Source: Alphaproteobacteria bacterium
GTDB taxonomy: Bacteria; Pseudomonadota; Alphaproteobacteria; Rs-D84; SZUA-605
DNA: 64,000 bases
Direction of reading: 5' to 3'
Assembly: GCA_031549385.1 (NCBI GenBank)
Contig: JAVBPW010000005.1
Coordinates: 64,001 to 128,000, forward strand
Position numbers and translations under genes: made by a program. Position 1 is the stretch's first letter. Every line of letters begins with the position of its first letter. This document shows, piece by piece, positions 2,062 through 55,357 of the stretch. A model generated the notes under the pieces. The model was not told the DNA's origin and searched no databases. It was given only the letters and a program-made list of their open reading frames with translations.

Positions 2062-2086
2062 AAAAAATCCTCCCTTTCGGGAGGAT
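2062..2086 (-). terminator. Intrinsic terminator of the ACP-like gene
   Basis: Minus strand ATCCTCCC-gaaa-GGGAGGAT followed by a T run. Confidence 0.85.
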
Positions 2087-2118
2087 CGCTGTCAGAGACA
2101 GACATCAAACGCAAGCTA

Positions 2119-2446: not shown

Positions 2447-2475
2447 ATATTACCATTTAATTTAAAAAATGTCAA
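2447..2475 (-). promoter_or_regulatory. Sigma70-type promoter of the ACP-like gene
   Basis: Minus strand TTGACA (2475-2470), 17-nt spacer, TAATAT (2452-2447). Confidence 0.7.
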
Positions 2476-2504: not shown

Positions 2505-2538
2505 AAAAGAAAAGGGCAGATTTACTTAAAAATCTGCC
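2505..2538 (-). terminator. Intrinsic terminator of the tRNA-like/ncRNA transcript
   Basis: Minus strand GGCAGATTT-ttaagt-AAATCTGCC followed by CTTTTCTTTT. Confidence 0.8.
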
Positions 2539-2564
2539 TCAATCCTAACTGTTTCAGTTGGTGC

Positions 2565-2622
2565 ATGCAACCTCCACCTTTCGGCTTGTAGGCGTGCAAA
2601 AACGCCTCGTTATTTGTTGCAT
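2565..2622 (-). ncRNA. Unrecognised three-way-junction RNA, copy 2
   Basis: AUGCAAC-AAAUAACG-AGGCGU[UUUUGC]ACGCCU-ACAA-GCC[GAAA]GGU-GGAG-GUUGCAU. The GNRA loop and G-U pair fix the minus strand. It lies 4 nt downstream of the tRNA-Gly-like RNA. Confidence 0.7.
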
Positions 2623-2626
2623 TTTG

Positions 2627-2697
2627 AAAGGGTGACGGGCACTGATCCCGCGACCTTCTCCTAGCAAGGAGCTGCTCTACCTCTGAGCTACACCCTT
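2627..2697 (-). ncRNA. tRNA-like RNA derived from tRNA-Gly(GCC), non-canonical
   Basis: AAGGGUG/CACCCUU acceptor with U73, intact D-arm GCUC-AGAGGUA-GAGC, 6-nt anticodon loop UUGCUA, T-loop AUCAGUG, no encoded CCA. Confidence 0.75.
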
Positions 2698-2723
2698 TGT
2701 CCTATAGGGTTTTAATAACCCTG

Positions 2724-2796
2724 CGGGCATGACTGGATTTGAACCAGCTACCTGGTCGTTTAGAATGACTTGCTTTACCAAATCAGCTTCATGCCC
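2724..2796 (-). tRNA. Atypical tRNA with CUA (amber) anticodon; suppressor or pseudo-tRNA
   Basis: GGGCAUG/CAUGCCC acceptor, G73, D-loop with G18G19, loop UU-CUA-AA (anticodon at 2761-2763), T-arm GCUGG-UUCAAAU-CCAGU. Deviations: A8, two A-C mismatches in the anticodon stem, no encoded CCA. Confidence 0.7.
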
Positions 2797-2833
2797 CTTT
2801 GAATTTATATATAATTCGTAAGTAACTGAGTTA

Positions 2834-2862
2834 GTTATATGAAAGATTTTCGAATTTGTCAA
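2834..2862 (-). promoter_or_regulatory. Sigma70-type promoter of the tRNA-like cluster
   Basis: Minus strand TTGACA (2862-2857), 17-nt spacer, TATAAC (2839-2834). Confidence 0.75.
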
Positions 2863-3417
2863 TTAAAATTTTAGCGAATAACCATTATCGTCAGTTTGTA
2901 TTAAATTGGCTTGAGTTGTGAGTTCTAGCTTTTGACGAAGGTTGTAAATGTGAGTCTTCAAAGTGTTTGTTTGAATGTTTTTGTCGTATCCCCAAATATT
3001 TTTCAATATTTCATCAGGGGTTGCATAGTGATTTGGTTGTTTTAATAAGAATAATAGTAATTCTTGTTCTTTTTGAGTTAATTCTATTTCTTGTTTGTTG
3101 CAAAAGAATGTGTTGTCTTTGATTTTGAACTTATCACAAGTAAAGGAATCTTCTGAAACTAATAAATCTTTTATTTTTTGCTTTAATTCAGATGGAAGAA
3201 TAGGGAGCTTTATAAAATGTGGTCCTTCTTTTTCGTCTGAAACTACTAGGTATCTCTTTGAATTTTGAGGAATATCTTTTTCATTGATTGTTATAATAAA
3301 AGAATCTTTATCATTAGTTTTGCTTTTTGTTGTGGAAATTGTTTTAAACATACCTTTAAGTAAGGATGTTAATAACCCTTCTTCCAATTTATCAAAACCT
3401 ATTAAGATTAAATTCAT
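2863..3417 (-). CDS. OmpR/PhoB-type winged-helix regulator with a degenerate receiver domain
   Basis: C-terminal IELTQKEQELLLFL...ILKNIWGY...TNTLKTHIYNLRQKL...GY. Start moved to ATG 3417 because the longer ORF overlaps tRNA-Cys. Confidence 0.85.
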   Translation of the reverse strand: MNLILIGFDKLEEGLLTSLLKGMFKTISTTKSKTNDKDSFIITINEKDIPQNSKRYLVVSDEKEGPHFIKLPILPSELKQKIKDLLVSEDSFTCDKFKIKDNTFFCNKQEIELTQKEQELLLFLLKQPNHYATPDEILKNIWGYDKNIQTNTLKTHIYNLRQKLELTTQANLIQTDDNGYSLKF

Positions 3418-3441
3418 GCGATTTTCAATGTTTAGTGTTAG

Positions 3442-3515
3442 TGGAGGCCGGTACCGGAGTCGAACCGATCTAGAAGGATTTGCAGTCCTCTGCATAACCG
3501 CTCTGCTAACCGGCC
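3442..3515 (-). tRNA. tRNA-Cys(GCA)
   Basis: GGCCGGT/ACCGGCC acceptor, GAGGA-CT GCA AA-TCCTT anticodon arm, U73 and CCA. Confidence 0.96.
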
Positions 3516-3660
3516 TCATTTTTTAACTTGCTTAGTTTATTATATTTATATTTTTGTGTCAATTGTAAAAATGGGAGTTTTTTCAGCTTTTTTGAAAGTC
3601 AACCCTAAATTTCTGATTTTTTTAATTATTTTTTTGTTTTTTAGGTTTTTAAAAGTCTGA

Positions 3661-54075: not shown

Positions 54076-54678
54076 ATGTCTGTTATAATAAATTTCAAAA
54101 TTTGTGATAATGCTAAAGAATGTGGGAGGATTGAAGTTTGTCCTGTTAATGCTATTTATTGGAATGAAGAAAAAGAAATAATTGAAACTAATAATGATAA
54201 ATGTGTAAATTGTTCTAAATGTATTAATGCCTGTCCTGTTGGGGCAATTAAAGTTGCTAAAAATCAAAAAGAATTTGAAGAAATTAAAAGAAAAATAGAT
54301 GAAGATACAAGAAAACCTTCTGAACTTTTCGTTGATAGATATGGTGCAGTTCCTATTTTTAAAAAAATATTAAAAGATAAAAGTGAAATAAAAGATTTTT
54401 TAGTAAATCAAGAAGGTTTGGTAATTATGGAATTGTTTGATGATAGTTCTATCAATTGTTTATTGAAATCTATACCTGTTAATGAATTATTTAAAAATGA
54501 AATTTTAAGTTATATAAAAATTGAAACTGATGATAATTTATTATCGGAATATGAGATTGAGGAATTACCAGCATTAACTGTTTTTAAAGATGGAAATTTT
54601 ATTGGTAAAATAGAAGGTTATTTTGACGAAACTCAAAAGGAAGAATTAATAAATAAAATCCAAAAAATTATTTATTAG
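54076..54678 (+). CDS. 4Fe-4S ferredoxin fused to a thioredoxin-like domain
   Basis: CDNAKEC...CP and CVNCSKCINACP; C-terminal LPAL.VFKDG..IGKIEG. Confidence 0.85.
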   Translation: MSVIINFKICDNAKECGRIEVCPVNAIYWNEEKEIIETNNDKCVNCSKCINACPVGAIKVAKNQKEFEEIKRKIDEDTRKPSELFVDRYGAVPIFKKILKDKSEIKDFLVNQEGLVIMELFDDSSINCLLKSIPVNELFKNEILSYIKIETDDNLLSEYEIEELPALTVFKDGNFIGKIEGYFDETQKEELINKIQKIIY

Positions 54679-55357
54679 CTTTCCATCGTGTTGAAGCGTG
54701 GGAGTCGTTGCAAAATGGTTTGTTTTCTGAATGTCCACAACGACACAGTGTTTGACGATTGCGAACTTCATAACTTTTGCCTTCCGCTGATTCTACTCTT
54801 ATTCCTCCACGTATCCACAATGGGCCGCTGATTTTTAAATGTGGATCTTCAAGTGTACAGATCTCTTGAGGGAGTTTTTCTTCCAATACATTACCTTCTT
54901 TATCTAAGATAATTAAACGGCCAGCAGGGCACTTGCATGTTTGTCTTATTGCTTCTTCATCACTTTTTTTATCACCCATTTGAACTAGATTCCAAATTCT
55001 TCCATTAGCATCACAAAACCTTGCAAATGCACAATAATCCTAATTGTCTAATAATGTTAGATTTGGTCCTTCGATGGATTCTGCATTATTTGCTATTGGA
55101 GAAAAGCTTGCTGTTTCTGTTCCATCAAAATTTTTTGCTACATGTGCTCCATCACAAAATGGAGGAGTTTTAGAATGACCACAACGACATAATGCTACTG
55201 GGTCTGATTTTATTTCAAATGTTTGACCATCACCATATTTAACTGATATTCCATCTTCATCTGTTAGTATTATTTTTTCTGATAAATTTTTTACTCCAAA
55301 TACTAAATATGGACCATCTTTCATTACTTTTATATATGGTTGTTTTGTTTCTGACAT
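54668..55357 (-). pseudogene. CDGSH / divergent 4Fe-4S / CDGSH protein interrupted by one in-frame TAG (pseudogene or read-through gene)
   Basis: ORFs 55040-55357 and 54668-54979 share a frame. Reading through TAG at 55040-55042 gives ...LLDN*DYCAFARFCDANGRIWNLVQMGD..., 229 aa. Confidence 0.85.

Follow-up and report, generated by a model that had tools for sequence, protein, structure and literature searches.

Natural suppressor tRNAs are rare in bacteria that use the standard genetic code, and almost never has one been linked to a particular interrupted gene in an organism from nature. Other atypical tRNAs include B. cereus tRNA-Other and the staphylococcal cell-wall tRNA-Gly, which are precedents for non-translational or pseudo-tRNAs. 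According to the accessible text of PMC13092985, suppressor tRNAs are present in 0.3% of standard-code bacterial genomes, and for the E. coli sup alleles that paper refers to the 1988 review by Eggertsson and Soll (ref. 89 in PMC13092985). The same text describes 'unpinned' tRNAs, in which positions 27 and 43 do not pair and the anticodon stem has 4 bp, and reports that an unpaired 27-43 raises read-through by CUA tRNAs; older work quoted there had put a CUA anticodon into a G27-A43 tRNA-Thr and found stronger UAG suppression than with the 5-bp version. The CUA anticodon is also carried by tRNA-Sup(CUA) of TAG-recoded phages (Borges et al., 10.1101/2021.08.26.457843) and by tRNA-Pyl, which has a 3-nt variable loop and a 6-bp anticodon stem (PMC7609411). 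As regards changes of the code itself, the bacterial reassignments known as of 2021 all involve UGA, as stated in the accessible part of PMC8629427. Our literature search returned no report of a suppressor tRNA in endosymbionts or Rickettsiales, the supplementary tables of PMC13092985 being outside its reach.

The tRNA described here was found in a 64,000-nt window (the whole stretch of DNA that was analysed) from the genome of an uncultured alphaproteobacterium:

2724..2796, minus strand: tRNA with anticodon CUA, 73 nt (ARAGORN and Rfam RF00005)

ARAGORN called a tRNA with anticodon cta at 2723-2796 (-) and labelled it 'Pyl', a label that rests on the anticodon alone, and Rfam RF00005 matched 2724-2796 (-) over the full length of the model (1-71) with 54.7 bits (E 5e-9; gathering score 29). 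The 37 tRNA matches in the genome range from 44.5 to 78.3 bits, and this one ranks 31st, above five canonical tRNAs. The anticodon lies at 2763..2761 in a 7-nt loop, UU-CUA-AA (U32 U33 C34 U35 A36 A37 A38), which has what an amber suppressor loop should have, namely a UAG-complementary anticodon, U33 and a purine at position 37; U33-CUA-A37-A38 is the loop of a tRNA that reads U-starting codons. The tertiary bases are canonical (G18G19, U54U55C56, A58, A14/A21), the acceptor stem has 7 bp and the T stem 5 bp, the T-loop is UUCAAAU, the D-loop has a normal 8 nt, the variable loop has 5 nt, and position 73 is G. The tRNA also carries A8, where U8 is near-universal in tRNAs, together with U15/A48, G13-A22, A27-C43 and A31-C39. 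The last two were flagged as non-standard by cmscan, leaving three standard pairs out of five in the anticodon stem. Altogether 18 of the 21 stem pairs are standard, the lowest count among the short-arm tRNAs, as against 19-22 in the canonical ones. The cloverleaf folds at -21.3 kcal/mol compared with a minimum free energy of -27.4 kcal/mol, a gap of 6.1 that lies inside the canonical range (maximum 6.2).

The tRNA is the first of two in what appears to be a single transcription unit, referred to below as the cassette, whose further parts are as follows:

2834..2862, minus strand: promoter-like TTGACA-17-TATAAC (exact pattern match)
2698..2723, minus strand: 26-nt spacer with a 6-bp hairpin starting one base after G73 (fold -6.9 kcal/mol, z -1.8)
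2627..2697, minus strand: second aberrant tRNA (ARAGORN; Rfam 44.5 bits)
2539..2626, minus strand: 88-nt trailer between the partner tRNA and the terminator (fold -23 kcal/mol, z -2.2)
2505..2538, minus strand: terminator-like hairpin (9 pairs, 2538..2515) followed by a T tract (terminator scan)

The promoter-like site begins right after the stop codon (2865..2863) of an upstream OmpR-type regulator gene, and its pattern occurs twice in the window against an expectation of 0.01. It was not listed by a promoter consensus scan, because the scan demands a second hexamer ending in T and this one ends in C. Around the cassette lie RadC, tRNA-Val, the OmpR-type regulator, tRNA-Cys and a CcrM-like methylase. 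The partner tRNA has a 6-nt anticodon loop, UUGCUA, which ARAGORN reported as '???' with the 2-base anticodon 'gc', as well as G27-A43, a T-loop (AUCAGUG) with neither U54 nor A58, U73 and no CCA. Its nearest relatives among the genome's own tRNAs are tRNA-Gly(GCC) and tRNA-Thr(GGU), and its phage BLAST matches fall on tRNA-Thr/Val/Gly. The trailer is weakly structured: in its predicted fold a stem of 7 bp encloses two hairpins, an outline that loosely recalls a tRNA lacking the D-arm, and it matches no Rfam family.

The earlier note on this DNA had described the 73-nt cloverleaf with its UU-CUA-AA loop, G73, G18G19 and canonical T-arm, had listed A8, U15-A48, A27-C43, A31-C39 and the lack of an encoded CCA as oddities, had observed that the five canonical tRNAs of the window do encode CCA, and had placed TTGACA-17-TATAAC upstream. 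All of this was recovered by ARAGORN, by Rfam and from the sequence, the promoter-like pattern at 2862..2834 (-). The second odd tRNA at 2697..2627 is absent from that account.

Evidence for the cassette at the RNA level comes from metatranscriptome library X2 (invertebrate gut), which belongs to the study whose DNA run is the probable source of the assembly. In this library a 159-nt contig, of depth 2.4, equals 2627-2785 with 0 differences and spans both tRNAs and the spacer, a match that is not in itself proof of transcription, level, ends or CCA. The end of the contig, at 2627, is the last base of the partner tRNA, but contigs cannot show RNA ends. In the CUA tRNA the first 11 nt have no cover by RNA-library contigs, and the same is true of 2806-3615 (regulator gene) and, in X2 only, of 2428-2626 (trailer), although contigs cannot show absence.

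The 3' end of the CUA tRNA deserves separate mention. G73 is followed by CAG and not by CCA, so that neither this tRNA nor its partner encodes CCA, whereas the other tRNAs of the genome do so without exception (35/35, including the five canonical ones in the window). An encoded CCA is also missing from some phage tRNAs. A CCA-adding-type nucleotidyltransferase is encoded in the genome (96.2 bits), and the RNA-library contig stops short of the ends of the CUA tRNA; RNase Z was not found in this genome, which is rated 97% complete. Poor maturation is therefore possible, given the missing CCA, the failure to find RNase Z and the hairpin that begins one base beyond G73.

When the locus is compared with the described systems, the chromosomal suppressor tRNAs of the E. 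coli sup type are the closest, as far as these are treated in the accessible text of PMC13092985. Like them, it combines an ordinary cloverleaf and a CUA anticodon with a host that has RF1 and stops at UAG, and with a nonsense-interrupted gene in the same genome. Unlike the sup alleles, the CUA tRNA, a putative suppressor, is no one-base variant of a resident tRNA, has no encoded CCA, carries two A-C mismatches in the anticodon stem and is paired with a second aberrant tRNA; it also comes from an uncultured symbiont with a reduced genome and not from laboratory selection. It resembles the 'unpinned' tRNAs of PMC13092985 in that 27-43 is unpaired (A-C), and differs from those described in the accessible text in being fully cognate to UAG and in having a second mismatch, 31-39, that opens the bottom of the stem as well. 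With tRNA-Pyl, as described in the accessible part of PMC7609411, it shares the CUA anticodon, G73 and G1:C72. The 5-nt variable loop, the 5-position anticodon stem, the 8-nt D-loop with G18G19 and the canonical T-loop all differ from tRNA-Pyl, and no PylS was found in the genome, the best TIGR02367 match (35.7 bits against a cut-off of 178) being located in the LysRS gene. An identity as tRNA-Pyl was rejected on the geometry and the missing synthetase; the earlier note was right that tRNA-Pyl geometry is lacking, with a 5-nt variable loop and no 6-bp anticodon stem, and the ARAGORN label is wrong here. Taken together, these comparisons suggest that the CUA tRNA is probably best grouped among the natural nonsense suppressors found in bacteria with the standard code, a known and rare kind.

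A covariance model built from the CUA tRNA as a single sequence was run on 150 genomes of the order. The model scored the tRNA itself at 107 bits, the genome's own tRNA-Lys(CUU) at 67.4 bits and the best locus in the 150 genomes at 67.0 bits, and no ortholog was found among these genomes. ARAGORN classified the best 14 of the 19 non-self loci as 12 tRNA-Lys, one tRNA-Thr and one tRNA-Met. The nearest tRNAs are tRNA-Lys(CUU/UUU), and about 51 of the 73 bases are identical to those of the nearest tRNA in the same genome. Relative to the genome's own tRNA-Lys(CUU), pairs 5-68, 7-66, 28-42, 30-40 and 51-63 and the tertiary pair 15-48 have changed on both sides and are still complementary, while three pairs (13-22, 27-43 and 31-39) are broken. 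As the differences are mostly compensated, a recent single-base anticodon mutation does not account for the CUA tRNA, which does not resemble the product of random decay either. A Gln identity was also considered and rejected, since GlnRS was not found in the genome and its own tRNA-Gln has a different body and A73. Both tRNA-Gln genes, which lie outside the window (G000, C7:261447-261520 and C7:347933-348006), have A73, and with no GlnRS found Gln-tRNA is presumably made by the indirect (transamidation) route.

Other searches likewise gave no ortholog. The upstream OmpR-type regulator was matched in 16 of 60 relatives and none of the 16 loci had any tRNA; these matches are 21-40% identical, and the sites may not be orthologous. 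BLAST of the cassette DNA in 40 relatives gave only generic tRNA-Thr pieces and short flank matches. Exact-pattern scans of genome contigs (2 patterns) and of metagenome contigs (2 patterns) gave 0 matches, which cannot show absence because an exact match is required and records near this genome may be left out. The exact 25-base pattern was found in 0 viral stretches, under the same limits, and no phage or plasmid record in the BLAST searches covers at least 80% of the cassette; the sole plasmid match on the CUA tRNA is a tRNA-Lys(CUU). The anticodon loop and T-loop are common to 18 viral CUA tRNAs, which score at most 59 bits with the model as against 67 for bacterial tRNA-Lys. The uncommon A8-A9 at the start of the D-arm region (GAAGCU) recurs in a viral CUA tRNA (L052:3324-3398, minus strand), whose overall score is low at 56.6 bits.

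These searches bear on the idea, put forward in the earlier note as a captured phage tRNA-Sup, that the cassette is cargo which arrived with a phage or some other mobile element, a setting in which tRNAs without CCA and suppressor tRNAs are common, and which either serves that element or is left over from it. Such an origin would be in keeping with the absence of CCA from two tRNA genes where all the others of the genome encode it, with the raised local GC, with A8 in L052, and with a position between tRNA-Val and tRNA-Cys, given that tRNA genes may have acted here as the classic insertion sites they are. It is nonetheless very unlikely, as the 25-base pattern has no viral match, the viral CUA tRNAs score below bacterial tRNA-Lys, no phage or plasmid record covers as much as 80% of the cassette, and no integrase or phage structural gene was found within 5 kb. 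The CUA anticodon is what the tRNA has in common with the tRNA-Sup of recoded phages; unlike those described in the accessible part of Borges et al., it is chromosomal, has no phage genes nearby and is accompanied by no block of TAG-containing genes (one real interruption among 24 junctions, see below). Phage capture is not supported by these results: pattern scans and BLAST gave no relative among viruses, phages or plasmids, none of the neighbours is a phage gene, and the closest tRNAs are bacterial tRNA-Lys.

Another possibility is that the two RNAs are tRNA-like but have no role in translation, and act, perhaps with an RNA from the adjoining stretch 2079-2422, as a decoy for a tRNA-binding or tRNA-cleaving protein, as a non-ribosomal amino-acid donor or as a processing or stability element. 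The adjoining stretch (minus strand) has a GC content of 0.42 as against 0.30 for the genome, a promoter-like site at 2475..2447 and a terminator at 2087..2066, and a 344-nt RNA-library contig of depth 55 is identical to it. Its predicted fold is strong (z -5.07). Searches with the 98-codon ORF within it gave no match in Pfam, PHROG or Atlas and no homolog among 150 relatives, and the stretch itself matches no Rfam family. Identities as tmRNA or RNase P RNA were rejected, both being located elsewhere in the genome, and the stretch could be an abundant mRNA for an orphan small protein or an uncatalogued structured RNA. A non-translational role for the tRNAs is made thinkable by the joining of two unusual tRNAs in one transcript, neither of which fits normal decoding, the partner having an atypical anticodon loop and T-loop, and by their place in a lineage-specific, GC-richer stretch (0.38-0.42 as against 0.30) that also holds this orphan, strongly folding RNA or ORF. 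Precedents of this type are B. cereus tRNA-Other and the staphylococcal cell-wall tRNA-Gly, which like the present pair are extra atypical tRNA genes beside a full decoding set, and the T-loop of the partner is likewise atypical. Unlike them, the CUA tRNA keeps G18G19 and a canonical T-arm, and no associated enzyme or T-box was found. We consider this reading unlikely, as the CUA tRNA retains everything needed for decoding, the canonical T-arm included, no partner protein or target was identified, and the neighbouring ORFs have no informative family. The decoy that the earlier note had suggested for the CUA tRNA is conceivable.

The host genome comprises 931 kb in 8 contigs with 30% GC. ORFs cover about 0.89 of it, with 20 gaps of at least 600 bp, and broken genes seem few because the genome is so compact. 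TAG serves as the stop codon of 121 of the 700 ORFs of at least 150 aa in the whole genome (17%). The median in-frame distance to the next stop is 10 codons past TAG compared with 8 past TAA, so that TAG stops show no sign of adaptation, their back-up stops coming no sooner than after TAA. The prfA gene, which encodes RF1, is intact (511.7 bits), has no internal stop, and keeps the PET (PxT) and GGQ motifs; prfB is also present. The prfB match, outside the window at G000:C7:103144-104166, has one TAA within the matched frame, not the usual TGA of the programmed +1 site. A single class II LysRS makes up the lysyl-tRNA synthetase complement, and class I LysRS was not found. The CcrM-like methylase mentioned above is likewise encoded by the genome.

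UAG is not reassigned genome-wide, since RF1 is intact, PylS was not found and TAG ends 121 of the 700 long ORFs. Genome-wide reassignment was accordingly rejected, the more so as a TAG lies inside a domain at only one of 24 TAG junctions. The statement in the earlier note that this genome still stops at TAG is upheld by these counts and by the intact prfA. In the examination of synthetases and release factors that it had proposed, prfA proved intact, pylS was not found, and the lysyl-tRNA synthetases amounted to one class II LysRS with no class I enzyme.

A candidate target for a UAG-reading tRNA is found in the same window, as follows:

54671..55357, minus strand: gene for a CDGSH - Fer4_19 - CDGSH iron-sulfur protein, 229 codons (Pfam)
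55040..55042, minus strand: in-frame TAG at codon 106, followed by G (assembled sequence and tblastn alignment)

Pfam matched this gene with zf-CDGSH at 114.9 bits and with Fer4_19 at 31 bits, the latter over residues 95-152 and thus across the TAG. In a census of the whole genome, a junction was defined as an ORF of at least 80 codons, one stop and then at least 60 open codons in the same frame, and all read-through windows were compared with Pfam. This gave 120 in-frame ORF-stop-ORF junctions (24 TAG, 76 TAA and 20 TGA), and a Pfam domain crosses the stop in 1/24 TAG, 0/76 TAA and 0/20 TGA cases, the single instance being the TAG of the CDGSH/Fer4_19 gene. No cluster of in-frame TAGs was found in the genome. 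The in-frame TAG census suggested in the earlier note therefore yielded one domain-crossing TAG, while the other 23 of the 24 TAG junctions are not crossed by a Pfam domain. A random single-step nonsense change is TAG in about 17-18% of cases, so that the sole broken gene being a TAG case is weak evidence on its own (p about 0.17 by chance). A codon-usage score for a wider TAG census was found unreliable and set aside, as it flagged antisense frames; an extra TAG candidate that it gave, C5:19338, is antisense to a 2472-codon ORF.

Homologs of the gene are uninterrupted in 9 relatives, at 59-69% identity. The residue aligned to the TAG is Q in four of them, E in three, R in one and I in one, and is therefore a variable position. 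Of the 90 columns that are invariant among the 9 relatives, 83 are kept (35/36 upstream of the TAG and 48/54 downstream). Downstream losses, which include the Gly of the second CDGSH motif, thus number 6/54 as against 1/36 upstream, a difference that is not significant (p 0.24), and the excess points towards relaxed constraint, to judge from the alignment. Across the order the gene was found in 11 of 150 relatives, two of which have fragments only (L078 in G097 and L079 in G133). With no match in 139 of the 150 and fragments in two, it has been repeatedly lost, and on this distribution it is dispensable in the order.

This history brings up the possibility that the whole arrangement is an inert relic, in which two tandem CCA-less tRNAs are decaying or never functioned, being transcribed yet unused in translation, and the TAG is simply the first damage to a gene that is being lost, as it has been in other lineages of the order. 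Several observations speak for it. Both tRNAs lack the CCA present in 35 of 35 others, both have a 27-43 mismatch, and in the partner the anticodon loop measures 6 nt while U54 and A58 are missing from the T-loop; the two A-C mismatches could be what G-to-A drift produces at 30% GC. No search gave an ortholog, the TAG stops show no adaptation, and most relatives lack the CDGSH gene, two having fragments, while in the present genome its losses of invariant residues lie mainly downstream of the TAG. On the other side, a functionless 170-bp stretch equipped with a promoter-like site and a terminator would be out of the ordinary in a genome with ORF cover of about 0.89, the CUA tRNA has kept its tertiary core and 18 of 21 stem pairs, with differences from the nearest tRNA that are mostly compensated, both tRNAs are found in one RNA-library contig, and conserved genes are broken in 0/96 cases by TAA or TGA as against 1/24 by TAG. 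We regard an inert relic as the main rival to the reading given next, a real if rather doubtful possibility.

The reading that we prefer, tentatively and with somewhat less than even confidence, is that the CUA tRNA may be a lineage-specific, tRNA-Lys-like amber suppressor of low efficiency that partly rescues the CDGSH/Fer4_19 gene. Of the proposals in the earlier note, a weak or conditional amber suppressor is accordingly the one that stands as the best reading, now with a candidate target in the form of an in-frame TAG within a Pfam domain and with a presence in an RNA library; we infer its maturation, charging and decoding of UAG, with the read-through that would follow, as well as its link to this gene. 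Under a suppressor model the CUA tRNA would be transcribed as the first member of the two-tRNA transcript, RNase P and exonucleases would trim this transcript, and the resident CCA-adding enzyme would complete the 3' end. Charging with Lys by the single class II LysRS appears most likely, judging by the tRNA-Lys-like body and U35. Against this, the tRNA-Lys of this genome has A73 where the CUA tRNA has G73, and one of the anticodon contacts of LysRS is removed by A36. C34, A36 and G73 would presumably also suit TrpRS, and Trp may be the alternative charge. The charged tRNA would then compete with intact RF1, so that a minority of ribosomes might decode UAG as sense and make some full-length CDGSH/Fer4_19 product, while ordinary TAG stops would mostly still terminate. 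The weak anticodon stem, A8, the lack of CCA, the 3' hairpin and the imperfect -10 (last T missing) all suggest that suppressor activity would be low, and low activity fits a genome in which 17% of the long ORFs end in TAG without extra back-up stops.

A wider version of the suppressor reading can be imagined, in which the tandem tRNAs form an 'error-buffering' operon in a genome-reduced symbiont, as a defence against mutational decay, with the partner as a second unconventional decoder, e.g. a frameshift suppressor. That role for the partner would be only a guess, and the operon as a whole is quite improbable. If it did exist, UAG read-through would keep the CDGSH gene in service, and the pair would be a standing translational defence against the decay by mutation to which small asexual populations are prone.

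The narrower reading, as a low-efficiency suppressor, is of interest because one and the same uncultured alphaproteobacterium, with a small genome, combines a structurally sound CUA tRNA with RNA-library evidence and with a single conserved gene that is interrupted by TAG. It would offer a concrete example of the way in which a shrinking genome may tolerate nonsense mutations, and it bears on the onset of stop-codon reassignment, in that a suppressor would be present while RF1 remains. For annotation, it follows from the present analysis that the CDGSH gene needs a check before it is labelled a pseudogene. A last observation concerns the annotation tools themselves: the genome has an alpha-type two-piece tmRNA outside the window, at G000:C7:155577-155929, which was missed by ARAGORN, a blind spot of that tool, and was found with the Rfam alpha_tmRNA model at 166.8 bits.
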